In this document: piece by piece, positions 3,229 through 52,496 of the stretch
Position numbering within the stretch: the first letter of the stretch is position 1
How the letters are laid out: each line of letters begins with the position of its first letter
DNA from: Zootoca vivipara
Lineage: Eukaryota
Direction: 5' to 3'
DNA: 64,000 bases
NCBI RefSeq assembly: GCF_963506605.1
Contig: NC_083286.1
Coordinates: 35,588,001 to 35,652,000 of the forward strand
The notes under the pieces: model-generated
The model's database searches: none
Told to the model about the DNA's origin: nothing
What the model saw: the letters and a program-made list of their open reading frames with translations, nothing else
Program-made: the position numbers and the translations under genes

Positions 3229-3672
3229 AAGTTTCACTTGATAATCAAGAAAAATACTTTTGGAATTTGAAAAGTATTGCATTGAAACATATATTTAAAT
3301 AGTCTGGGAAAGTATCTGATGAATATTCAGTGAATAAGAGGGTTTGTATCTGCTGTTGTTCAAATTTCAAATGTGATGAATAGGAAACCCTGTTTTATAT
3401 GTTAATGCCATCTTAATAGGTGCAGACAAGATCTATTATAAATAACAGAATGTAAATTACTTTAAAGCATCCATCATAAACACAGGGAGTGGGGAATGAA
3501 AAGGTAGTATAAAGGAAGTAACATGCTAATTGTACAAGATATTTGAAAAATGGAAAAGGCAGTGAATACGGTGTGCCTTTTTCTAGTCCCCAAAACAATT
3601 TTACTTCGGAAAAGTATTTTCTGCTAAATATGTTGCCTAATATGCTTAATAACCATGAACTTCATTTTCTAG

Positions 3673-4868
3673 GATCTTTCGCTCAGATTGGACCAAAAAC
3701 CTTTTCCTTCTATTCAGCAGAAGAAGAATTTGAAAAAATCCCATTGGGAGACGATGACACTGAAAGCAATTCAGAAATGGGATCGGGTTCTATCAATGAA
3801 AGTATATTCCGTGGAGAAACACGAATGCTGCCAACTGAACGGATCTCTGGAGATATCAAGGAGTACCTGACTAGTGGATGGCTGACCGTTTTTGTTCCAT
3901 CAGTTTATACCTTAGTTGTCATGCTGAGTCTTCCTCTGAACGTCATGGCAATTCTTGTGTTCCTGATAAAAATGAAGGTGAAAAAGCCAGCTGCGGTGTA
4001 CATGCTCAACCTGGCTTCTGCGGATGTTCTCTTCGTGAGTGTGCTTCCTTTTAAGATTGCCTACCATTTTTCTGGGAACAATTGGGCATTTGGACCTGAA
4101 ATGTGTCGTTTTGTCACTGCTACCTTCTACTGCAACATGTACTGCTCTATCCTGCTGATGATGGTGATAAGCATGGACCGTTTCCTAGCAGTGGTGTACC
4201 CAATGCAGTCTCTGTCATGGCGCACGCGAAGGCGTGCCTTTGTGGTCTGTCTTGCCATCTGGCTTGTAGCAATAGCTGGGGTGATACCTCTGCTAATCAA
4301 TGAACAAACCCAAAGAATCCCTCAGTTAAACATCACAACGTGTCATGATGTGTCAAACAATGATGATCTTAAAGGCTATTACCTTATTTTTTTCACCGTT
4401 TTCTCTTCTCTTTTCTTTTTTGTGCCATTAATTGTTTCTGCCGTTTGCTATGTGTGTATCATTCGGAGTCTCAGCTCTTCCAATGTTGCTGCAAAGCAGA
4501 GCAAGAAAACACGGGCTTTGTTATTGTCTGTAGCTGTTTTCTCCATTTTTATTATGTGCTTTGGTCCAACCAATGTCTTTTTGTTAATTCACTACATCAG
4601 CTTTTCTTACAAAAACTACTTGGGGAATATCTACTTTGCCTATCTCATCTGTGTCTGTACTAGCAGTATAAGTTGCTGCATTGATCCTTTGATCTATTAT
4701 TACACCTCTTCTGAATGTCAGCGACACCTTATCCATCTTTTTTGCTGTAAAAAGACCTCTGAATCCTGCAGTACCAGTACCAGTGGCCAATTAATGACTA
4801 GGACCAGTAGAAGGGCTACTTGCACCAGTACACTTGGTAACAGTGTCTACAGGAAGCTATTAACATAG
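3673..4868 (+). CDS. F2R: Proteinase-activated receptor 1 (thrombin receptor), coding exon 2; exon 1 not found in window
   Basis: Acceptor ttcattttctAG at 3671-3672 (phase 1); GPK/TFSFYS then hirudin-like EEEFEKIP; 7TM with DRF, TTCHDV, DPLIYY; CC palmitoylation pair; terminal NSVYRKLLT (human NSIYKKLLT); synteny with F2RL1 and S100Z. Confidence 0.95.
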
Positions 4869-12810: not shown

Positions 12811-12883
12811 ATGGGCCGAACTCTGAAGATCTTTTCTCTGCTTAATATACTCTGCACCTTACATAGCACAGTAAGAGCAAACA
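12811..12883 (+). CDS. PAR1-like paralog B, exon 1 (signal peptide MGRTLKIFSLLNILCTLHSTVRAN)
   Basis: ATG, hydrophobic stretch, phase-1 donor GTAAGT at 12884; homologous to exons at 20701 and 29175. Confidence 0.8.
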
Positions 12884-15008: not shown

Positions 15009-15505
15009 CACTAATGCAAAATGTACCTTCTTTAAAGAGGCATAAGCTTTCTAGCAACTCCTTGGGAGTGCTTTCAACTGACCTGTGCTCTCTTGACTCT
15101 TGATAGCTTTTAACGTATAGGACACCAGTATTTGCAGCACACTCTCTTCTGTTCTGTTATAGAATAGGATCAGAAAAGGGACATACTGAGAAGGAAATAA
15201 CTGATTTGTAGTAGAGAGACCTCCAAAGTAATAGAGTGTTTCAGCATAAAATAAAAAAGTAAGGAAGGGGTTTCAACATTAATTGTATTAGCACAGACCC
15301 CTCCTGGGATCTTACAGTGAGAGGGCAGGGATCACAAATCAACAACAAAATTAACAACAACATTCCTAATAATCCAGATTGGAAAATACAAATCTGTAAT
15401 TTAGTAGTCTAAACTTGTATTCTGATGAAGAGAGTAATACTGAATGTTATGCTGGTGTTGACATAATTAATTATACATTGCTTCTCCTTTCAAATTCATC
15501 CTTAG

Positions 15506-16563
15506 ATGCGGCTAGGAGCCTCTTGCCAATTTTCATCAGCCCTTCTACACATGAGAATGAGTTGGACATCCACAATCAACACACAGAGTCCATTCACCTC
15601 TCAGAGGACATTGAAACATTCATAACTAGTCCATGGGTAACTCGGTTTGTTCCTTCAGTCCACATTATTGTTGTTATGTTCAGTCTTCCTTTAAACATTA
15701 TTGCAATCCTTGTGTTTGTGGTCAAATTAAGGCTTAAAAAGTCAGCTACAGTGTACATGCTCAACCTGGCTTTTGCCGATGTCCTCTTCGTTTGTGTGCT
15801 TCCTTTTAAGATCATCTACCACTTTTCTGGAAACAACTGGACATTTGGACCAGAAATGTGTCGTTTGGCCACATCTGCCTTTCACTGCAACATGTACTGC
15901 TCCATCCTGCTGATGGTGGCGATAAGCATTGACCGTTTCCTGGTCGTGGTGTACCCAATGCAGTCTCTGTCATGGCGCACACCAAGACGGACCACTTTGA
16001 TCTGCTTTGCCATCTGGATTATAGCCATAGCTGGAGTGATTCCTCTGCTTCTCAATGAGCAAACAGAAAGATTCCCTCGCTTAAACATTACCACCTGTCT
16101 GGACTCACTAGCTTTCTCTACAATGAAGACATTTTATCGTTACTTTTCTGCAGTGTCTATTTTGTTCTTTTATATACCATTACTAATTTCTGGTACCGGT
16201 TATGTGTGCATTATAAAGAGGCTTTCTTCACCCCATGTTGCTACAAAGCCAGGTAAAAAGAAGCGTGCCATTCTCCTGTGTGTAGCTGTCTTGTCCTCTT
16301 TTATTATTTGTTTTGGTCCAACAAATGTCGTGTTTATGCTGCAAGTCTTCAGCCTTTTGCCTGAACAGCAGGTTGCGAATCTCTTGTTTGCATGCATGCT
16401 TGCCACTTGTATCACTACCATAAGCTGTTGCATTGACCCCTTGATTTATTATTATGCCTCTTCAGAGTATCAAAGGCAGGTCTGGCGCCTCCTGTGCAAT
16501 AGAAAGCATTCTGATCTGGAAAGGAGCATTCGGTTTACAAGCAGTAATATAGAAACCTCATGA
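15506..16563 (+). CDS. PAR1-like paralog B, exon 2 (7TM GPCR; spliced product about 376 aa)
   Basis: Open frame with PAR1-type NLAFADVLF, FSGNNW, CNMYCS, DRF, CCIDPLIYY; likely acceptor cttAG at 15504-15505 keeps phase 1. Confidence 0.88.
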
Positions 16564-20700: not shown

Positions 20701-20800
20701 ATGAGGTGCACCTCTGAGGGAGAAATAGGCGCTTTCCTCAAGATCTTCTTTTCTCTGTTCAGTATAGTCTCCACCGTATTTAGCACGGCAAGTGCAAACA
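20701..20800 (+). CDS. PAR1-like paralog C, exon 1 (MRCTSEGEIGAFLKIFFSLFSIVSTVFSTASAN)
   Basis: ATG, hydrophobic core, A-S-A signal cleavage motif, phase-1 donor GTGAGT at 20801. Confidence 0.8.
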
Positions 20801-21582
20801 GTGAGTACAACCCAACATCCTTTCTCCACAATTTAATATTTAAAGCAATGTGTTTATATTGTGCAATTGTTTCAGGGAACATTCACTTTCTCTTACTTTT
20901 CCAAATGATTGTGATATGGAGGAAGAACCAAGTTGAAGGGTTTTAAAAGAGGAGGGAGAATATCACTGTAACATGGGGAGAAATCTGCTTTGCAGTGGTT
21001 ATATCCAAATATTTTTAATATTCAGTTTATCAGACACTTGCACATAAAAAGTTTCCAAGTGAAATAAATCATAAAATATAATGATTGGTTTCACTGAACT
21101 GAATTCCAGTTCGTACCTTAGCTTAATCGGGGCTTCTGTTTTCAATTTGAATGGAATCTGGTTTGAGGGAATGCACATTGAATGAGAGTATTTCTCATGA
21201 AGCAATGGGACACAGATGGATTGTAGCTAACATCCTGTGTACCTGGCTTCAAACACTGATGGTGAAAGCACACTGGAGCAGGAATAAACAGCAATGTGTA
21301 CACAGCCTAAGAGCAGGAAAAGCCTAGTCAGAAGTCTAAGTCAGGGGATGCATGGCCCTCCATATGCTGTTCGGCTGTAAAGCATTAAAGGGTGATCCCC
21401 TATCCTCCAGATTACAGCAGTATCTGGATGGCCAAAGGTTCCTCAACCTTTGTTTAAAGGTTATTATCTCACATTTTCATGTAAATCCATACACTGAAGT
21501 TTATCATTTGGAATAGGGAAAGCCAGGGAGAAGGGATAGCAATGGAATTTTTGTCAACATCAGTACAGTAATTTTTAAAATA

Positions 21583-23917
21583 CAGTGGTACCTCTGGTTA
21601 CAAACTTTATTCGTTCCAGAGGTCCATTCTTAACCTGAAACCATTCTATTATTATTATTATTATTAAATATTTCATTGAGTTGCAAAAATATGTGCAACG
21701 TCTCTTGTAACATCTTTACAAATCAGTTTCATTTGTTGTGACATTGGGAAGAAAAGGGGGAAAGAGGTAGATGGGGGAGGGTGGGTGGAGGTGGGGTTGG
21801 GTGATGATGTTTCTATTTTGCTTAATATGTATGGGTTTTTTTGTCAGTGTCACTTGTGTAGGTTCTCTGCTGTTCGCTTGCGTTCCTTTGGTGGTGAGAG
21901 ATGTTGGGGTTGGCCTAGGATATGGTTGTTCATTTGGGGTTGGCTGTGGTGGTCTTTGTTTCGTGTGTGAGTGGGGTGGGTAGGTGTTTTGGGTCAGGTT
22001 AGCCATATTGATTCGTATGCTGTTGGTGGATTTTTGTTGTTGTCTTGTTGGGCTGTGTATGTGATAAAGGGGAACCATACTGGGGTGAAGCCGTCTTCTT
22101 CTATTTGTCCCCGTGTCAGTTTCAGCTAATTGGTTAATTTTTCTAGTAAGGCTGTTTCCCTTACTATTTGGTACCATTGGTCCATGTTTACTCCTGACAG
22201 GTCTCTCCAGTGTCTGGTTATGGTGTTTCTGGTTGCTGAGAGTAAGTGGGTTATGAGTTCTTTGTGATGTAGGTGGGCCTTATTGTCTTGGAAGATGTTT
22301 AGCAAGGCCAGTTCTGGGGTGATTTCTAATACTTGTTTGGTTATTTTACATATATCTCGTATGGTTGTTGTCCAGAATAGTTGGATTTTGGAGCACTCCC
22401 ACCACATGTGGAAATATGTGCCTGTTGAGGTGCACCCTCTCCAGCATTTTGGTGAGGTTCCTGGGCGTATTAGCACTAGTTTTCTTGGTGTTAGGTACCA
22501 CCTGTAGGTGAGTTTCAGAGTGAGTTCTTTCCTTTTTGTTGATATAGATTTAAAGGGGGGTTTAGACCACATTTTGGTCCACTGAGTGGGGCTAATCTCG
22601 TAGCGTATGTCATCTTCCCATTGTCTTTTGACTGTGTCTAGGGGATTTGTGGAATTTTGGAGTAGTATTTTATATATTGCAGATACCATCCCTTTGCCGT
22701 GTCCCTTTGTCGTTAGGAGGTTTTCAAAGGTTGTCAGAGGCCTAGTTGCTGCTGATTTTACCGCTGGGTTGCTTAGGAGGGCGTGTAGTTGGTGTTGTGC
22801 TAACCAAGGTATTTGGGTGTCTTCTAGTTTATCCAGTATTTCTTGTGTTGACAAAGCTTTGTTATTTTTATAAAGGTCTATTAGGCGATATAAGCCTTTG
22901 GCTTGCCAGGTTTTTATCTGGAGGTTTTGTGCTGCATGGTGGAATAATGGGTGGTAAGCCAGGGGGGTTAGTGGGGATGGGGTTGGGGATAGTTTGCCCA
23001 TTTCTGTTTTCCATGCTTTGAACATGGTTTGTGTGTACCTATTAAGTGTTGTGGGGATTTTCTTTTGTTTGGGAGGAATGGGTATGCTGTGGTGCAGATA
23101 TTTTCAATTGAGTCCCTCTGTAGGTTTATCCATTGTTTTGTCTCATCTTCCAGTATGTATGGGATTATATGTCGTATTTGATTGGCTCTGTAATACATTT
23201 CTATGTTGGGGATTCCCCATCCTCCTTGTGAGGTGGGGCTATGCAGATATTTGGTGCTTATTCTTGGTTTTTTATGTGAGAAGATGAAAGAGTGTAGTTT
23301 TCTCTGCCATCTGCGAAGTTGGGTTGGGAGAATCCAGATTGGGAGGGTTTGGAATAGGTAGGTTAGTTTTGGGAGGGTGGTCGTTTTGATCATGGCCATT
23401 TTGTCTGAGAGAGTGAAATTCATATTGTTCCATCTCTTTAGGTCTTTGTTTATTTGTCGCCATAGGGTATAATTTGTTGAGGTTTTTGGTTATTTGTAAC
23501 CCTAGGTATCTGAACTTGGTGTGACAGAGTTTTATCTTGGTGATATTAGTGGGTTCTTTCTGGGTGTGAGGAGAGGTGTTGAAGCACATGGCTTCTGATT
23601 TTGTAAAGTTTACTTGTAGGCCTGACACTGTTGCAAATGTGTTGAGTTCTCTGATTAGGGAGGTTGCTGTGTTTAAGGGGTCTGGTGTTGTGACCATTAA
23701 GTCATCTGCAAAGAGTCCTAATTTGTATGTTCTCCCTTTTTTTATTTCTACCTGAAACCATTCTTAACCTGAGGTACCACTTTAGATAATGGGGCTTCCC
23801 ACTGCTGCTGCCGCACGATTTCTATTCTCATCCTGGGGCAAAGTTCTTAACCCGAGGTACTACATCTGGGTTAGCGGAGTCTGTAAGCCGAAGTGTTTGT
23901 AACCCAAGGTACCACTG
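21583..23917. mobile_element. Tigger/pogo-type MITE interrupted by an L1
   Basis: TA-flanked TIR CAGTGGTACC; uninterrupted relative at 59270-59509. Confidence 0.85.
21648..23749 (-). mobile_element. 5'-truncated L1-clade LINE (ORF2 RT C-terminus and zinc knuckle, frameshifted)
   Basis: FADD near 23701-23712, SGLQVNFTKS, GGWGIPN, CWRGC...HMWWEC; (TAA)n tail; 15-bp TSD ACCTGAAACCATTCT (21633-21647, 23750-23764). Confidence 0.9.
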
Positions 23918-24048
23918 TACCCTATTAAGTATAGCCAAATCTATAACTTCATTTGAATTAATATTCTCATGAGTAAACCAAAGTTGTTGTATTGACTTCT
24001 GTAACATTGTTAATATGGCCATTTATATATCTGATCTACATATTGCAG

Positions 24049-25136
24049 ATTCCACATTTCCCCTTATTGCTGCTGGTTTCCCTATATATTATACTCATGA
24101 GGAAAACAACTCCAATCAATCCACAAAGCGTGCATTTATCACAGAAGATGGTGAAAAATACTTGACTTGTCCATGGCTGACACGCTTTGTTCCTTCAGTC
24201 CACACTGCTGTGGTTATTTTGAGCCTTCCTTTAAACATTATGGCAATTCTCATGTTTGTGGTCAAATTAAGGCTTAAGAAGCCAGCAGTGGTGTACATGC
24301 TCAACCTGGCTTCTGCAGATGTCCTCTTTGTGAGTGTGCTTCCTTTTAAAATCGCCTACAACTTTTCTGGAAACAACTGGATGTTTGGGCCTGAGATGTG
24401 TCGATTTGTCACTGCTGCCTTCTACTGCAACATGTACTGCTCCGTCCTGCTGATGATGGTGATAAGCATTGACCGTTTCCTGGCCGTGGTGTACCCAATC
24501 CAGTCCCTGTCCTGGCGCACAGCAAGACGGGCCTCGATGGTCTGCTTTCTCATCTGGCTTCTGGCTATAGCTGGGGTGATACCTCTGCTTGTCAATGAGC
24601 AAACAAAGAGATTATCCCGGTTAAATATTACAACCTGTCGTGATGCAGTAGATATCTCTGCTTTTATGGATATATTTCGGCATTACTTTTCTGCATTATC
24701 TATTTTGTTCTTTTTTATACCGTTATTAATCTCCACCACCTGTTATGTGTGCATTATAAGGAAACTTTCTTCGTCCAATGTTGCTGCAGAGCCTAGTAAA
24801 AGGAGACGTGCCGTTCTCCTGTCTGTAGCTGTCTTGTCTTCTTTTATTATTTGTTTTGGTCCTACAAATGTCCTATTACTAGTGCACAGCTTGTACTTCT
24901 TACCTGATCAACCCCTTGAAAGTCTGTATTTTTCCTACATCTTAGCGGTCTGCATTGGTACCATAAACTGCTGCATTGATCCCTTAATTTATTATTATGC
25001 CTCTTCAAAGTGTCAAAAGCAGGTGTGGGATCTCCTGTGCTATAAAAAGCAGTCTGGTCTCGAACAAAGCAGTCAGACAACAAGCAGTAATGCCACAAAT
25101 CATTTTAGTGGCCTGAAAAATTTGTCTCAAGCATAG
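24049..25136 (+). CDS. PAR1-like paralog C, exon 2 (spliced product about 395 aa)
   Basis: Acceptor ttgcAG at 24047-24048, phase 1; intact PAR1-type 7TM. Confidence 0.9.
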
Positions 25137-26670
25137 AATTTTACAGTGTGTGGTACAGTATTCATAAATATAGGTGTTGCATGCCAAAGCATGCATAATT
25201 TGTCCCAAGCATAGCATCTTACATTAAATATGTTTGCAGTATGTGCAGTAATACTCATTTGTAAACCTAGTGTTGCATGCCACCTATTTTACAGCCTCTG
25301 TCTTTAACGTCCACGCATTCTTGCTCTAGAATATTTATGCTTTTTTCTTATATTCCAAGAAAAAGATATCAGACCATGGTTTTTCTGCAGCTGCTGTTAA
25401 AATAACGTCTGCCTAGAGACATGTTTTGCTCCAATGGTGATTGTATAGAAATAAATATTATATTTTGTTGTCCAGTTATTTTCTCATTATCTTTTCATAA
25501 CATTAACAAATGTGAACTGTTGCCATTTTACATCTACTGTATATGCAGTAATTATGAGTTTGCGGGCAAGGGGGCATCAATATGCTGATGGCACTAAGGT
25601 CTCTTTTTCCATAACATCTGTGTTGGGGGAGGCTGGGCTGTCTCTGGACCCGTGCTTGGATGTAGTGCAAGATGGATAAGGGAAAACCAGTCTGAGTTGG
25701 ATAGAATTAGGCTACAGTTTATTGATTACAGAGCAACAGGTTTGATGAAGGTATCAGGCATGGATCACATCCATGGGATCACATAGCCCATTTGCCGCTT
25801 GATAAGCTTATTTTTTGACCATCACGGTTACTCATCCTGGCATGAACCGCTATCTAATGAGCTTCCTCTGGCCACCGGCAGGGGGTGCCATGGCCTGTCA
25901 GCCCACAAGCTGGACTTCTGGACAGAAATTGCTGCCTCCAAGATCCCTCAAGGGGACCCCCTACGAGCTGCGACAAGGTGCCCCCTCCTCTACCCCTCCC
26001 TTATCCAGGGCATTTTTAAAAGCAGGAATTCACAGGAACTCAGTTCTGGCACCTCTCAGGTAGGCACCATTGCTATTATAAGAGAACAACAGAGGTGTTC
26101 ATGGTGAGTTCTGGCACCTCTTTTTCCAGAAGAACAGCACTGCTCTTACATGACAACAGTTGTGACAATTTAAAAGTGTAGTGGAAACAAATCAACAGAA
26201 ATTATTAAAAGGATGTCTGGGTGGGGAGATCGGCTCTGAACTGCAGTGAGGAGCAGCAGCGGGGGAGGGGGTCCCCTTAAATACTTCCAGAGAGGACCAG
26301 ACTCCCAGAACCTTCTATCTTGTCTGCTCTGGAAGTCCCTCCCCTCACCCACAGCTCCCAGCCCTTCACCGCAGCTCCATGTCTCACCCAGCTCCAAAGA
26401 GCCTGACCCAACGCAGAATATTCCTGGTGCTTCTGCTTCCTCCTTGCAACTGCCCCAGGCTGCAACAACTGCCCCCAGTAATCTGGGAATGGGAGGATTC
26501 TGGCAAGAACCTTTTGAAACAGGAATATGATTTCATTCTGTTTGCAAAGAACGTGTTGGTACATTCAGAGGGACCAAACTAGATGAGATGGCAGTGATGG
26601 TAGCTTTTCCAATAGAGAAGACGGAGCTTTGGTGTACTGTATTGCATAGCTTTTTGTCAGTCTCCCTGAT

Positions 26671-27278
26671 TGCTGTTGTTTAGTCGTTTAGTCGTGTCCG
26701 ACTCTTTGTGATCCCATGGACCATAGCACGCCAGGCACTCCTGTCTTGCACTGCCTCCCGCAGTTTGGTCAAACTCATGTTCGTAGCTTCGAGAACACTG
26801 TCCAACCATCTTGTCCTCTGACGTCCCCTTCTCCTAGTGCCCTCAATCTTTCCCAACATCAGGGTCTTTTCCAAGGATTCTTCTCTTCTCATGAGGTGGC
26901 CAAAGTATTGGAGCCTCAGCTTCACGATCTGTCCTTCCAGGGAGCACTCAGGGCTGATTTCCTTAAGAATGGATAGGTTTGATCTTCTTGCAGTCCATGG
27001 GACTCTCAAGAGTCTCCTCCAGCACCACAATTCAAAAGCATCAATTCTTCGGCGATCAGCCTTCTTTATGGTCCAGCTCTCACTTCCATACATCACTACT
27101 GGGAAAACCATAGCTTTAACTATACGGACCTTTGTCGGCAAGGTGATGTCTCTGCTTTTTAAGATGCTGTCTAGGTTTGTCATTGCTTTTCTTCCAAGAA
27201 GCAGGCGTCTTTTAATTTCGTGACTGCTGTCACCATCTGCAGTGATCAAGGAGCCCAAGAAGGTGAAATCTCTCACTG
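26671..27278 (-). mobile_element. BovB/RTE LINE 3' fragment
   Basis: ORF ...SESWTIKKADRRRIDAFELWCWRR...KSRTRLND, (CAA)n tail, near-TSD GTCTCCCTGATT/GTCTACCTGATT. Confidence 0.92.
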
Positions 27279-29174: not shown

Positions 29175-29274
29175 ATGAGGTTCGCCGCTGGAGGAGAAAT
29201 GGACCCCTCTCTGAAGATCCTGTTTCCTCTGTTTAGTATGGTCTTCACCTTATTTAGCACAACAAGAGCAAAAA
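29175..29274 (+). CDS. PAR1-like paralog D, exon 1 (MRFAAGGEMDPSLKILFPLFSMVFTLFSTTRAK; second ATG at 29199)
   Basis: Hydrophobic signal peptide, phase-1 donor GTAAGT at 29275; homologous to the other two exon-1 copies. Confidence 0.82.
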
Positions 29275-29686
29275 GTAAGTACAACCCAACACAATTTCTC
29301 CACAGTTCAATATTTATAGTTAAAGCAAGGCATACGCAATGTGCAATTGTTTCAGGAAAATTTCACTCTCTCTGATCTTTCCAAATGATTGTGCTATGGA
29401 AGAAAAACCATGCTGAAGCAGCAAGAGTAAAGGAGGAGGGAGAGTATCCTTGTACTAGGGAAAAATGTACTTCTCAGTGGTAATATTTATCAGTCACTAG
29501 CACATAAAAAAATATCTAAGTGACTGCAACATTTTAAGAGCATAAGGTATAACGTAAGATCAGAAGAACAATGAATAAAGCATTTTGTAGGGGTTTTTTG
29601 CTCTAAAATTCCTACCCTATTTAGGGTGAACTCAGACTGTCTCTTCTTGCACAATCTGCCTCTGATATTTCGGCAAGGAGGTGATG

Positions 29687-30076
29687 TTGATGTTGTTGTT
29701 GTTGTTTAGTCGTTTAGTCGTGTCTGACTCTTTGTGACCCCATGGACCATAGTATGCCAGGCACTCCTGTCTTCCACTGCCTCCCGCAGTTTGGTCAAAC
29801 TCATGTTCGTAGCTTCGAGAACACTGTCCAACCATCTCGTCCTCTGTCGTCCCCTTCTCCTAGTGCCCTCCATCTTTCCCAACATCAGGGTCTTTTCCAG
29901 GGAGTCTTCTCTTCTCATGAGGTGGCCAAAGTATTGGAGCCTCAGTTTCAGGATCTGTCCTTCCAGTGAGCACTCAGGGCTGATTTCCTTCAGAATGGAT
30001 AGGTTTGATCTTCTTGCAGTCCATGGGACTCTCAAGAGTCTCCTCCAGCACCATAATTCAAAAGCATCAATTCTTC
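29687..30076 (-). mobile_element. BovB/RTE LINE 3' fragment in the paralog D intron
   Basis: Same RTE C-terminal ORF, (CAA)n tail, TSD GGTGATGT. Confidence 0.9.
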
Positions 30077-30926
30077 GGTGATGTACTTCACAGAAAATCA
30101 AGGATTTCTTTACTGCATAAGATCTTGTACTTCGCTAAAAAATAAACTTGTCTCTGTTAGATTGGGCAAAAAAGCTGGCCATAGTTCACTCCTCACAAGT
30201 TAGAGATCCAAGCACCCTTAAGATGCTACAGTTCCTATGATTCTTTGATGGAAGTTGTGTGCTTTAAATGTATGCGTGTGTACACAGGCAATGTCAGAAT
30301 ATGACTATGCCTACATTAGCAGCATGAAACACAGCGACTTGTCCCTGTCTCCCTTAGTTTCAAGTCACATTCTTAGATTGCTGCACACACCAGAGAAGGG
30401 GCAGGAGTGTCTTCACCTGGTGTCTATTACCACACTATTTCACCACACTGAACTCGCGTTCACTGAAGCTGTCAGCTGCATGTGTGCTGTCATCTGTACA
30501 TGCACAGTGGCTGTCACCCTAGCTTAATATTTGTTTCCATTTTCAAGCTGATGGAAGCTGGCTAGAGGGAAAGCACATCAAACAGGAATACTTCTTGAGA
30601 AGCTGCAAGTTGCAGGTGGATTGTGGCTAATGTCATGTGTATTTGGTTTCAAATACCAGCAGTATTGCTGGTAGACAACAATGGTCTAAAGGTTACTTTG
30701 CACATTTTCAGGATGGGGGGGGGGGAATAGCTGAAGTTTCTCATTAGCAATAGGAAATATGTAAATTTCATCTACAACAATAATTTTTAAAACCCCAAAT
30801 GTGTAATTCTATAATTTAATCTGAATTCATATTCTCATAAGTAAACTAACATGGTTGCATTGATGTTTGTAACATTAGCTATATAGGTATTCATAGATTT
30901 GATTTATATATTGCTTCATCTTTCAG

Positions 30927-32050
30927 ATTCATCCTTGGGCATCCAGCCTTTTTTTCGTAGTTTCCCTGTGATGGAAGAAAATGATAATAATATGGAAATA
31001 ATTACTAACAATACTTCGAACAACTCCAATCAATCCATAAAGCAAGTGGTTACCACAAAACAAGCTGAAAAATACTTGACTGGTCCATGGCTGACGCGCT
31101 TTGTTCCTTCAGTCCACACTGCTGTGGTTATTTTGAGCCTTCCTTTAAACATTATGGCAATTATCATGTTTGTGGTCAAAATAGGGCTTAAGAAGCCAGC
31201 AGTGGTGTACATGCTCAACCTGGCTTCTGCAGATGTCCTCTTCGTGAGTGTGCTTCCTTTTAAGATTGCCTACAACTTTTCTGGAAACAACTGGATGTTT
31301 GGGCCTGAGATGTGTCGATTTGTCACTGCTGCCTACTACTGCAACATGTACTGCTCCGTCCTGCTGATGATGGTGATAAGCATTGACCGTTTCCTGGCCG
31401 TGGTGTACCCAATGCAGTCTCTGTCCTGGCGCACAGCAAGACGGGCCTCGATGGTCTGCTTTCTCATCTGGCTTCTGGCTATAGCTGGGGTGATACCTCT
31501 GCTTGTCAATGAGCAAACAAAGAGATTATCCCGGTTAAATATTACAACCTGTCATGATGCAGTAGATATCTCTGCCATTATGGATATATTTCGGCATTAC
31601 TTTTCTGCATTATCTATTTTGTTCTTTCTTATACCGTTATTAATCTCTGTCACCTGTTATGTGTGCATTATAAGGAAACTTTCTTCGTCCAATGTTGCTG
31701 CAGAGCCTAGTAAACGGAGACGTGCCGTTCTCCTGTCTGTAGCTGTCTTGTCTTCTTTTATTATTTGTTTTGGCCCTACAAATGTCCTATTATTAGTGCA
31801 CAGCTTGCGCATCTCACCTGATCAACCCCTTGAAAGCTTGTATTTTGCCTACATCTTAGCGGTCTGCATTGGTACCATAAACTGCTGCATTGATCCCTTA
31901 ATTTATTATTATGCCTCTTCAAAGTGTCAAAAGCAGGTGTGGGATCTCCTGTGCTATAAGAAGCAGTCTGGTCTTGAACAAAGCAGTCAGACAACAAGCA
32001 GTAATGCCACTAACCTTTTTAGTGGCCTGAAAAAATTGTCTCAAGCATAG
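30927..32050 (+). CDS. PAR1-like paralog D, exon 2 (spliced product about 399-407 aa)
   Basis: Acceptor catctttcAG at 30925-30926, phase 1; PFFR/SFPVM; intact 7TM with TTCHD and DPLIYY. Confidence 0.92.
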
Positions 32051-35780: not shown

Positions 35781-35817
<37 letters not shown>

Positions 35818-36204
35818 GAGTCGTTTAGTCGTGTCCGACTCTTCATGACCCCATGGACCATAGCACGCCAGGCACTCCTGTCCTCCACTGCTTCCCGCAG
35901 TTTGGTCAAACTCATGTTTGTAGCTTCAAGAACACTGTCCAACCATCTCGTCCTCTGTTGTCCCCTTCTCCTTGTGCCCTCAATCTTTCCCAACATCAGG
36001 GTCTTTTCCAGGGAGTCTTCTCTTCTCATGAGGTGGCCAAAGTATTGGAGCCTTAGCTTCACGATCTGTCCTTCCAGTGAGCACTCAGGGCTGATTTCCT
36101 TCAGAATGGATAGGTTTGATCTTCTAGCAGTCCATGGGACTCTCAAGAGTCTCCTCCAGCACCAAAATTCAAAAGCATCAGCCTTCTTTATGGTCCAGCT
36201 CTCT
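35780..36204 (-). mobile_element. BovB/RTE LINE 3' fragment with long (CAA)n tail
   Basis: RTE C-terminal ORF 35727-36146. Confidence 0.9.
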
Positions 36205-36938: not shown

Positions 36939-37057
36939 CTCGAAGCTACCAACGTGAGTCTGATCAAACTGCAGGAGGCAGTGGAAGACAGAAGTGCCTG
37001 GCATGCTCTGGTCCATAGGTCACGAAGAGTCGGACACGACTAAACAACAACAACAAC
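36939..37057 (+). mobile_element. Very short BovB/RTE 3' end
   Basis: Matches other copies; 10-bp TSD AGAATTGAAG. Confidence 0.85.
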
Positions 37058-38304
37058 AGAATTGAAGAATTCAGACCCTAGGAATTTGTTTTGCGTGTCA
37101 GAACTGAATGGAGCTCACAGGCCTTTCATAAAACAATCCATTCCTGATTACCTCAATCTTTCTTCATATTAGCAGTATAAATTAGGGCTGAGAGGGGCTG
37201 AAAATAGTTTTGTTGCTACTATTGTTAAAACAGTTGAAAGTATAATAACAGTAATAATAATCTTGCTGATTTAGTACAAATCACCCAGAGCTATGTCAGG
37301 AGATCCAGATCTACATTCAGCCTCATTATTGGTTTATTTGATACATAACTGTAGAAAATGTGATGTCCAATTATTGATGTTTCTGTAGGTGTGGTTGGAA
37401 AATGGATTCCTTTTATTTCACATTTACCACAGATTAGCTCTCTTAAAATAGATGAAAGCCATGATTAAGGCCATTGGGCACCTCCCATTCATTTAAGCAG
37501 GAACTGGAACTGGAAAAGCAAATATTTCTAAAACCACAGTCCTATACAGTATTATACTCAGAAGTAATCCCCATTTAACTTAATGGTGCCACCTTCTGAT
37601 TAGGTATACATGGGATTGCACAGTCAATGTGTTATGGAGCCAGAACTTGGAGAAATATGCTGCTGTTTGGGGAAGGTAGACTCAGTAGGATAAAGTGGGG
37701 AGCCTGTGGCTCTCCAAATGTTGTTGGAATACAACTTCACCCATTCCCAGCCATTGTGGTGAACTAGCCTGACTTCGTATAAGGCAGCTCTTATGCCCTT
37801 CCAGTGATGAATGATTGCTGCCAGCTGATCTTCTTTAGGGAAGTTTGTTTGGCCTCAGCCTGAGAACTAAATATCTTCTGTAAGCCACCTCTGGAGGACT
37901 TTAGCACTGAAAGGTAGTGTATAAATAGTTCAAACAAACAATAAACCTGCTACAGAACTTTTGCAGGAATCAGGGGAAGAAAAAAATCTATTTAAATAGA
38001 TTATATTGCATAGGTTCTAGAGCTACTATAGTCTGTTCCTCACCTGTCCTTCATTTCAGGGAAGAATGCAGGCCCTAATGAATGTTTTGCCTTGAAAAGT
38101 CTCCCCAGGAGGGTGAAGTTTGGTAGGAGACAGGTGGGAAGAAGGGGAACCCTTCTCCTGCCATTTGTTTACCTCCTGAATCATCACACCTATGTGTTAC
38201 TTTTATCCCCTGTGGCACTCCATCTTGATGAGTAAGCATGGAGTATTGCCAGAGACAAAAACCAGTTGGGGTATGGCAGGAAGTTTCAGGTGAGGTATTG
38301 AGTT

Positions 38305-39984: not shown

Positions 39985-40110
39985 TGTTGTTGTTTAGTCG
40001 TTTAGTCGTGTCCGACTCTTTGTGACCCCATGGACCATAGCACGCCAGGCACTCCTGTCTTGCACTGCCTCCTGCAGTTTGGTCAAACTCATGTTCGTAG
40101 CTTCGAGAAC
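39985..40110 (-). mobile_element. BovB/RTE 3' end
   Basis: Matches other copies; CATACATG flanks. Confidence 0.85.
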
Positions 40111-40140
40111 ATACATACATACATGGTGCAATTTTGGCCA

Positions 40141-48167: not shown

Positions 48168-48883
48168 AATGTGTTTCTCTCCCTTGAGCCCAAGAGAGGG
48201 TTCGGTCCTTTTTGTTTTCAAAACTTTCATAGCAGTGCATAGCATGTCTGTCCTCACCAACTCTTCCAGACAGTGTCTGCTTGAAGTCAGCACACTCAAC
48301 TTCCACATCCTTTCCCCAATACCATTTATTCTTTGTGAAATACAATTACAATGCAAATGCAATACAAATACTCGCTGGATTGCTTGACAAACTCTTAAGA
48401 CACAAAATAATAAGCCTAATTGGCCACAAAAATGGCTGAGAACCAATGAAGTATAGTGGTTAGAGTGCCAAGCTAGTACTGGAGAGACCTGGGTTCAAAT
48501 CCCAACTCAGCCATGAAGCTCAAGGTTGAGACCTATCCTCAGGAACAATCTTATTTGCATCACAGGATGTTTGTTAGAATAAAATGAAGAGGGGGAGGCA
48601 GTCCACCTCCTTGAAAGAACGGTGGGATAAAAACATGATAGATAATAAAGTAAAATGACCTCCATAGGCTTCAGCAGGAACAATGGGCAGGCATAGGAAG
48701 GATTAAGCATGATGGATAAATAAGGTAAGAACAGCCACTGAGGGTTTTACCAGGAACAATGGACAGGCCTTCGCACTCTCTTCTTTAAAGATTCTAAATT
48801 TGTGGGTCGTCTGGCTTCATGATTATCATGTTTGGTTTTTCACCAATGGGCAGCTAACACTCTTGCTTTTATCTCCTTTTTAG

Positions 48884-49983
48884 AGAGAAATCCAACCAAC
48901 CGGACAAAAGGAAGAAGCTTCATTGGTCATAAGGTCAATGCAAGCAACGCCTCTAAAGATGCATACACTGTGGATGCTTTTGCAGCCAAAATCCTCACTG
49001 GCAAATTGACTACAGTCTTCCTGCCCACGGTCTACATTCTAGTGTTCATCATTGGCTTGCCAAGCAATGCTATGGCTCTGTGGGTCTTCTTCTTGAGAAC
49101 GAAAAAGCGGCACCCAGCAGTGGTCTATATGGCTAACCTGGCAATGGCAGATCTCCTCTTCGTTATCTGGTTCCCTCTGAAGATTGCATACCATATTAAT
49201 GGCAATAACTGGATCTATGGCGAAGGCTTGTGCAAAGTACTCGTTGGGTTCTTCTATGGAAACATGTACTGCTCTATCCTTTTTATGACATGCCTCAGCG
49301 TACAAAGGTATTGGGTGATTGTGAACCCAATATTGCACTCAAGAAAGAAGTCGGAAATTTCTGTGGGGATTTCAGCTGCAATATGGATACTCATCATCCT
49401 TGCCACGATTCCATTGTATCTTGTTGACCAAACTGTTTATGTTTCTAACCTCAACATCACCACTTGTCATGATGTCCTGCCTCATGCAGTGTTGGCTAAA
49501 GACATGTACAACTACTTTCTTTCTCTAGCAATTGGAGTCTTCTTATTCCCCGCTGTTCTCACAACTGTTTCCTATGTCCTCATGATAAAGACTCTGAACG
49601 CTTCCATTACAGATGAGAACATTGGGAAGAAACGGAAAAGAGCCATCAAGTTCATCGTTACTGTGCTTTCCATGTACTTGATCTGTTTTTTGCCCAGTAA
49701 TGTTCTGCTCGTGTTACACTACGCCCAGATCACAACCCACAACACCAGTAATGTATACGCCTTGTACATTGTAGCGTTGTGCCTTTCTTCCCTAAACAGC
49801 TGCATCGATCCATTTGTCTATTACTTCATTTCAAAGGACTTTAGGGACAACCTTAAAAACGCACTCCTCTGTCGAAGCGTGCGCACTACAAAGAGAATGC
49901 AAGTCTCTCTCTCATCAAACAGATACCCAAGGAAGTCCCCCTCTTATTCCTCCGGTTCACAGACTACGAAGTCAACCTACTAA
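48884..49983 (+). CDS. F2RL1: Proteinase-activated receptor 2, exon 2 (spliced product about 390 aa)
   Basis: Branch point CTAAC, polypyrimidine tract, AG at 48882-48883; NRTKGR/SFIGHK; LTGKLTTVFLP, PAR2-type QRY, TTCHDVLP, ALLCRSVRT, terminal TTKSTY. Confidence 0.96.
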
Positions 49984-52344: not shown

Positions 52345-52496
52345 NNNNNNNNNNNNNNNNNNNNNNNNNNNNNNNNNNNNNNNNNNNNNNNNNNNNNNNN
52401 NNNNNNNNNNNNNNNNNNNNNNNNNNNNNNNNNNNNNNNNNNNNNNNNNNNNNNNNNNNNNNNNNNNNNNNNNNNNNNNNNNNNNNNNNNNNNNNN
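52345..52496. other. Assembly gap (N run)
   Basis: Run of N. Confidence 0.99.

Follow-up and report, generated by a model that had tools for sequence, protein, structure and literature searches.

A PAR1-like paralog with Ala-Ala at the canonical cleavage position in the F2R-F2RL1 cluster of Zootoca vivipara

All four known proteinase-activated receptors (PARs) open at a basic residue at the canonical site, according to tables in PMC4026716 and PMC6440139. Human PAR1 is also cleaved by PR3, after Ala36, and signals as a result (PMC4026716, in part), which provides a precedent for Ala at P1. Ligand recognition by the human receptor is described in parts of two papers: Tyr337 hydrogen-bonds Ser42, the first residue of the ligand (PMC11443083, PMC12033368), mutation of Tyr337 reduces agonist potency, and residues P85-S89 constitute a ligand-binding segment (PMC11443083). 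With respect to reptiles, the excerpted part of PMC4771116 gives a single PAR1 and confines the expansion of this receptor to teleosts, Anolis being the sole lizard considered. Genes of the subfamily described below are already annotated as 'PAR1-like' in public databases; we found no description of a lepidosaur PAR1-like subfamily in the open literature, subscription literature being outside the scope of the search.

The window analysed here is a stretch of 64,000 nucleotides from Zootoca vivipara, with five PAR-type reading frames on its plus strand, the strand of all exons given below: A (3522-4868), B (15400-16563), C (23973-25136), D (30887-32050) and PAR2 (48823-49983). Since exon 2 of PAR2 (F2RL1; 48884..49983, reading GR/SFIG, where the slash marks the cleavage position) identifies the locus, and since the closest relatives of C are Podarcis and Lacerta models named 'proteinase-activated receptor 1-like', the window is the lacertid F2R-F2RL1 cluster, C being located between F2R and F2RL1. 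C is an intact two-exon gene. Its coding exon 1 (Met and signal peptide; 20701..20800), which ends in a GTGAGT donor in phase 1, was found by tblastn with the N-termini of Podarcis C proteins (74-84% identity), the database model of C (P0001) beginning inside the intron. Exon 2 (24049..25136), preceded by a CAG acceptor at 24046-24048, encodes the exodomain and the seven-transmembrane (7TM) body through the stop codon, and its top match among solved structures is human PAR1 (431.8 bits). The spliced frame of 395 aa has GT-AG ends and no internal stops.

Paralog D is likewise split into two exons (29175..29274 and 30927..32050), the second of which reads FR/SFP with the Arg codon at 30956-30958. 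For canonical PAR1 (F2R, gene A) exon 2 was identified (3673..4868; PK/TFS and a hirudin-like motif), and exon 1 was not found within the 64-kb window. P1 is Lys (GPK/) in all five lacertid canonical PAR1 proteins listed, and in A Ser replaces Leu258 of extracellular loop 2 (ECL2). Paralog B (exon 1, 12811..12883; exon 2, 15506..16563) keeps P1 Arg, reading AR/SLLP as in Lacerta and Podarcis. At 15488-15505 of B, ctttcaa stands in place of the homologous ctttcag acceptor of D. Splicing at the following AG (15504-15505) would preserve the phase but leave the protein four residues shorter than Lacerta B, the upstream sequon being among those lost; the database model of B (P0135) has a different, doubtful 5' end. 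The pocket of B is the most strongly altered one (Y183H, H255L, H336Q, Y337V, E347A, Y350L and Y353C), for which reason a decoy role or a changed ligand is more plausible for B than for C. As to repeats, the intron of C contains a high-copy element (21580-23920; one contig of sequencing run X11 joins 21616 to 23752), with minus-strand frames at 22126-23763 that resemble part of a LINE reverse transcriptase, apparently embedded in a short element of which pieces lie on either side. Another interspersed repeat with retrotransposon-like frames is present in three copies that are 91-96% identical (26670-27081, 29682-30082 and 35794-36203) and in shorter pieces at 36939-37059 and 39985-40111. Runs of N, representing assembly gaps, are found at 1026-1156 and 52345-52496, neither of them within a PAR exon found.

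At the cleavage position C reads gct gct ggt ttc cct (24069-24083; AA/GFP) and D reads ttt cgt agt ttc cct (30953-30967; FR/SFP), as had been noticed earlier from the sequence alone. Accordingly, P2-P1 of C are Ala-Ala (24069..24074), where canonical PAR1 has Pro-Arg or Pro-Lys, and they are followed by the putative tethered ligand GFPIYY (24075..24092, with the Gly codon at 24075-24077), corresponding to residues 43-48 of the spliced protein. An assembly error at this site is excluded, since contig record 4 of run X11, which comes from a study other than that of run X10, covers 23896-24212 and agrees with the window base for base (0 other letters); sequence data that might have shown Arg at P1 of C thus carry Ala-Ala as well. 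The register of the site is sound, because three alignments agree on it: the C/D DNA alignment pairs both cleavage sites with one 6-nt gap upstream, the bird PAR1 P0094 and C align gap-free over the stretch that runs from the N-glycan sequon to R/SF in the former and A/GF in the latter, and the structural model considered below gives the same correspondence. GFP is therefore supported as the positional tethered ligand. In 90 of the 100 canonical PAR1 proteins examined, as in C, 7-10 residues separate the nearest sequon from the ligand; across lineages, the sequon persists, and the ligand start of a small residue followed by Phe keeps a steady distance from the exon junction. The possibility that signal peptidase itself exposes Gly43 was set aside by inference: an Ala-x-Ala site is found ahead of Asn33, and the hydrophobic stretch stops well before Gly43. 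Closer to the membrane, C carries Cys at 24168-24170 (YLTCPW), a position that is Gly in D and in the Podarcis copies, resulting in an extra extracellular cysteine adjoining TM1.

P1 Arg is found in none of the C orthologs. P. muralis carries two C copies, of which C2 reads AY/GFP and C1 reads RF/AFP (N-termini 78% and 70% identical to that of the window C, respectively), and C of P. lilfordi also reads RF/AFP; copy number varies between lacertids. GFP is thus kept in the closest Podarcis copy, C2, and Ala is not. The three Podarcis D proteins read FA/SFP, with Ala where the window D has Arg (a search with the N-terminal region of Podarcis D alone gave 2 proteins among 13 candidates). The earlier note had described the Arg as lost from C and had raised the conservation of Ala among orthologs as a check. 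A loss specific to C is not borne out, given the Ala of Podarcis D and the absence of Arg from 16 of 20 paralog exodomains, and nor is the conservation of Ala, P1 being Tyr or Phe in the C copies of Podarcis. Because Podarcis D has Ala, the window D is probably the outlier, its Arg being most simply a recent lineage-specific gain. Tyr or Phe at P1 is a chymotrypsin-type specificity, so that the Podarcis residues fit chymotrypsin-type enzymes better than elastase; since P1 is Ala, Tyr or Phe depending on the C ortholog, it does not point to any one enzyme.

The features by which thrombin recognises PAR1 were compared across 20 paralog exodomains, namely those of the 3 window genes and 17 database proteins, which are related rows and not independent events. 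Ligand anchors were set by hand; rule-based anchoring misplaced C2 of P. muralis (Pmur_C2) and picked SFA over SFP in two D rows. N-terminally truncated models, tegu models and three rows with a basic residue were omitted, the latter being P. muralis B (R/SLLP), a copy from the girdled lizard Hemicordylus (P0154; YR/MG) and a Varanus model (K/GLLP, 13 residues from YLT). P1 Arg is present in 4 of the 20 hand-anchored paralog exodomains (a basic residue in 7 of 23 if the three omitted rows are counted), compared with Arg or Lys in all 24 squamate canonical PAR1 proteins; residues at P1 across the clade are Ala, as in C, Tyr, Phe, Ser, Leu, Met, Gln, Thr or Arg. Pro at P2 was found in none of the 20, and an aromatic P2 in 11 (against a background of ∼8% aromatic residues), C not being among them. 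The hirudin-like motif, as defined by a regular expression of our own making, is absent from all 20 paralogs, including C, and present in 22 of the 24 squamate canonical PAR1 proteins. The best reading of these comparisons is that C no longer answers to thrombin. In three Varanus paralog models (P0036, P0341 and P0342) the exodomain is very short and no x-Phe ligand is found at the usual distance.

Phylogenetic analysis places C in an old lepidosaur clade of PAR1-like paralogs within the tandem F2R-F2RL1 array, with members in geckos, skinks, girdled lizards, lacertids, a tegu, a monitor, an agamid and the tuatara. In a tree of 63 7TM bodies, canonical PAR1 is separated at 100/99 from 35 squamate 'PAR1-like' proteins, and the sister pair of C and D has support of 100/95. 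In a 46-row tree with PAR2, PAR3, PAR4, fish and frog outgroups, in which one row was skipped for lacking the end motif, the paralogs and the tuatara protein form a group of 16 rows (98/90) that includes C and nests in a 31-row amniote PAR1 clade (100/99), apart from PAR2, PAR3 and PAR4. The partial agamid protein joined the paralog clade in a quick tree. No snake or Anolis paralog was found among the 120 matches listed (of 962 and 887 in all) or recognised among the representatives listed. The tuatara and squamate lineages split ∼240–250 million years ago. The free tree places the paralog clade outside reptile PAR1, suggesting, and not requiring, a duplication older than the turtle/archosaur split; an origin within lepidosaurs only is not rejected (p-AU 0.086). 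A common origin with the PAR1-like copies of frogs was rejected, the frog expansion (P0165, P0168, P0169, P0174 and P0177) forming a separate clade at 100/97.

The residues that contact ligand Ser1 in human PAR1, His255 and Tyr337, are replaced in C by Arg and Ser. Positions 6.58-6.59 of TM6 are His-Ser (24885..24890), so that Tyr337, the contact of ligand residue 1 (PMC11443083, PMC12033368), is lost, and the Arg of ECL2 (TTCRD; 24639..24641) occurs only in the window C among the lacertid C and D proteins aligned; Val257-Leu258 of PAR1 are Ala-Val. All 118 canonical PAR1 proteins captured by the pattern have His-Tyr at 6.58-6.59, as against 0 of 41 paralogs captured, one of which has Tyr6.59 as Gln-Tyr, without the His; the pattern missed one of 119 canonical proteins (His-Tyr by eye) and 3 of 44 paralogs (which the alignment shows as QS, RN and QN). 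A contig of run X11 reads His at 24640. All five of the differences listed for this contig are of the D type, and its depth of 75 exceeds the 40–51 of C-specific pieces, so it is probably a merged C and D contig and says nothing firm on Arg255. C retains Y95, Y161, the C175-C254 bond, D256, F182, Y183, M186, F271, H336, E347, Y350, Y353, DRF and DPxxY, among which are the relay residues named in part of PMC11443083 (Asp256, Tyr350, Tyr353, Phe182/Tyr183, DRF and DPxxY). Asp256 and Tyr350 account for the largest potency losses quoted there (33-fold and 158-fold). The activation relay and the G-protein motifs are thus kept in C. The loss of Tyr337, the change of His255 to Arg and that of Val257/Leu258 to Ala/Val could just as well indicate that the pocket is weak or dead.

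An AlphaFold2 model of C was built starting at the Gly of GFP, from an 82-sequence alignment (mean pLDDT 84.3; first ten residues 79). Residue 1 of the model coincides with Ser42 in 8XOR, 9D4Z and 8XOS, the start having been chosen by us and no shifted-start negative control being included. With this chosen start, the model superimposes on 9D4Z over 297 of 297 residues at 1.4 Å and on 8XOR over 304 of 305 residues at 1.6 Å (Z 41.6). In a control, a model of the canonical receptor A started at Thr also put its residue 1 at Ser42, with a lower N-terminal confidence (56).

Identity between C and D is 96% over 230 residues of the body and 46% in the N-termini, each N-terminus following its Podarcis ortholog (74–78% identity for D against Podarcis D). 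At the DNA level, identity between C and D steps up at ∼24155 and is ∼97% across the 7TM body (24155-25175), being far lower in the exodomain and upstream; a small divergent patch within the bodies is located at ECL3 (YFL vs RIS). Because the bodies are nearly identical while the N-termini diverge, each resembling its Podarcis ortholog, the pattern is that of a body homogenised by gene conversion. Among the window genes, dN/dS values obtained by Nei-Gojobori counting range from 0.23 to 0.47 (0.44 for B-C, 0.33 for C-D and 0.23 for A-C), which points to purifying, not tight, selection. No reads were found on exons 1 and 2 of C in three same-species RNA runs of unspecified tissue, ∼6% of each being covered (7.5 million records) with no control gene; the few RNA reads matching the stretch fell in the repeat part of the C intron.

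On the strength of these sequence comparisons we favour, with confidence somewhat short of even, the reading that C is an intact tethered-ligand receptor, blind to thrombin, that would be opened at Ala42/Gly43 by a non-trypsin protease. After removal of the signal peptide, a glycosylated pro-piece of ∼10 residues would mask GFPIYY; a non-trypsin protease would then cut between Ala42 and Gly43, and Phe2 would press on the retained Tyr7.32 and drive the TM7 relay to the G protein. Candidate enzymes would be of the elastase/PR3 type for this allele, of the chymase/cathepsin-G type for the Podarcis copies with Tyr or Phe, and a P2-directed cysteine cathepsin for the clade. Cysteine cathepsins are described in part of PMC10124925 as having no strict P1 pocket and favouring a hydrophobic P2, an aromatic P2 not being the main determinant for cathepsin L; cutting of the clade by a papain-type cathepsin is a lead only, coming as it does from related rows with hand-set anchors and from a pattern that C does not fit. 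The earlier note had proposed elastase- or PR3-like activation, use of a KR/AF site or independence from proteases. The lack of a basic P1 and the positional ligand GFP are supported, and the PAR4-likeness, the C-specific loss, the conserved Ala and the KR/AF site are not; a non-trypsin protease or a protease-independent role for C is plausible.

Activation of C by a trypsin-type cut at TKR/AFITED, with AFITED as the ligand, would have in its favour a dibasic site followed by a small residue and Phe, like the start of a PAR ligand. The basic site is indeed present (KR/AFITED, 24126..24149, KR codons at 24126-24131), but it is not the only basic residue left, as had been thought, a further Lys being located just before the YLT motif. 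However, the Arg of this site is absent from all three Podarcis C proteins with an exodomain, the stretch reading TKHANT in Podarcis C1 and being deleted in C2, and KR/AF lies 9 residues before YLT, compared with 28 for GFP and 47–60 for the canonical PAR1 ligand. Furthermore, the segment is equivalent to about 84-91 of human PAR1, AFITED aligning with AFISED (A86-D91) and overlapping the ligand-binding P85-S89; the AFITED/AFISED identity may be convergent, because the orthologs differ. In human PAR1 itself, plasmin cuts at K82 and elastase at A86, both in this vicinity, and at low levels plasmin keeps the receptor from being activated (PMC6440139, in part). The KR/AF site is thus too close to TM1 and unconserved, its use for activation is highly improbable, and a trypsin-type cut there would most likely remove the ligand and disarm C rather than activate it. 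Hardly more credible is convergence of C on PAR4, with a PAR4-type ligand and pocket, an idea fed by the match of Gly1-aromatic2-Pro3 to the human GYP (PMC4026716, in part) and by the requirement for a small residue at agonist position 1, reported in part of bioRxiv 10.1101/746693 together with the importance of Pro3-Gly4 in PAR4 agonism. C scores 431.8 bits against human PAR1, 221.9 against PAR2 and 188.5 against PAR4, and falls within amniote PAR1 at 100/99. PAR4 of a hyena, a gecko and a frog (three of three lineages) has Arg followed by x-(F/I/L)-P-G and the TM6 His-Tyr, and C has none of these three marks, namely P1 Arg, Gly4 (Ile instead) and His-Tyr. Nor is the ligand start itself PAR4-like, as had been supposed: xFP, the commonest start, begins 14 of 24 squamate PAR1 ligands, so GFP is only one transition (a single A-to-G change) from the usual SFP, and the canonical PAR1 P0042 also has a Gly start. 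The resemblance of C to PAR4 is superficial.

More weight is due to two further alternatives. C might be a protease-independent or non-signalling PAR relative, acting as a PAR3-like co-receptor, as a partner in heterodimers or as the receptor of a soluble ligand, in which case the clade-wide pocket change would reflect a new ligand and the xF motif would be a relic. This we regard as doubtful. It would account for the presence of Tyr6.59 in a single one of the 41 paralogs, against all 118 canonical PAR1 proteins and the PAR2 and PAR4 rows checked, for the changes of His255, His336 and Tyr350 in several sub-lineages and for the Varanus models lacking a ligand-like segment at the usual distance, and it has a precedent in PAR3, described in part of PMC6440139 as not self-activating. 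Against it, the ligand motif with Phe at position 2 persists across lineages, as do its spacing and the sequon ahead of it; C retains Asp256 and Tyr350; and the predicted model, built from a chosen start, puts GFP in the orthosteric site. Alternatively, the array might evolve by birth and death, with C a redundant duplicate on which selection has been relaxed, its Ala and Gly being drift and its body being kept by conversion from D. The contrast between bodies and N-termini, the sister relationship of C and D, the changes private to the window C (His255 to Arg and the extra extracellular Cys), the differing copy number in lacertids, with two C copies in P. muralis, and, weakly, the absence of RNA reads on the exons in ∼6% of each of three runs would all be in line with this. 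Yet C has an intact exon 1, an intact exodomain and two sound splice sites, though none of these was homogenised by conversion, the N-terminus of C is as similar to that of P. muralis C2 (78%) as D is to Podarcis D, dN/dS is below 0.5 and the clade is retained in many families, so that we consider relaxation unlikely.

Taken by itself, the substitution in C is ordinary and the single-gene finding modest; the interest lies in the subfamily behind it. It is possible, and we put it forward tentatively, that lepidosaurs carry a fifth kind of PAR, a PAR1-derived, thrombin-blind array as old as the split between tuatara and lizards, in which conversion keeps the body while the N-terminal bait diversifies. 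If so, its copies would sense different immune-cell or parasite proteases, and the loss of Tyr6.59 would be a co-adaptation of the pocket to ligands that need no Ser1 hydroxyl, the Gly1 of C being the clearest case. A subfamily lacking thrombin-recognition features and keeping the relay would represent a natural experiment in protease change of a tethered-ligand receptor, would test the need for the Ser1-Tyr337 contact, and would suggest that immunity or wound response in reptiles includes an unstudied means of sensing proteases.

Among known systems, C is closest to PAR1, with which it shares the two-exon structure, the F2R-F2RL1 cluster, ∼62–64% identity over the solved part, the fold (for the predicted model, Z 41.6 and rmsd 1.6 Å over 304 aligned residues), the sequon before x-Phe and the relay. 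It differs from PAR1 in having no P1 Arg or Lys, no P2 Pro and no hirudin-like motif, in a linker of 28 rather than 47–60 residues, and in the changes of Tyr337 to Ser and His255 to Arg. With PAR4 (F2RL3) it shares the Gly-aromatic-Pro start and the lack of a hirudin-like domain (PMC6440139, in part); however, PAR4 forms a clade apart, has the P1 Arg, Gly4 and TM6 His-Tyr that C lacks, and is encoded on a separate chromosome (PMC4771116, in part), whereas C lies between F2R and F2RL1. PAR3, the thrombin cofactor, is a weakly self-activating PAR, and a gecko PAR3 row also lacks Tyr6.59 (HQ), but PAR3 keeps a thrombin site and a hirudin-like domain and C has neither. Lineage-specific extra copies of PAR1 are also known from the teleost and frog expansions (PMC4771116, in part), and the frog copy P0165 has no basic residue directly before its SF motifs; the frog copies nevertheless form an independent clade (100/97), and P0165 keeps the TM6 His-Tyr. 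Finally, the proposed opening of C resembles the non-canonical activation of PAR1 by elastase and PR3, in which a cut at a non-basic residue unmasks a ligand (L45/R46 and A36/T37, respectively; PMC4026716, in part), with the difference that the mammalian sites are side sites beside an intact Arg41, whereas in C the canonical position itself is non-basic.
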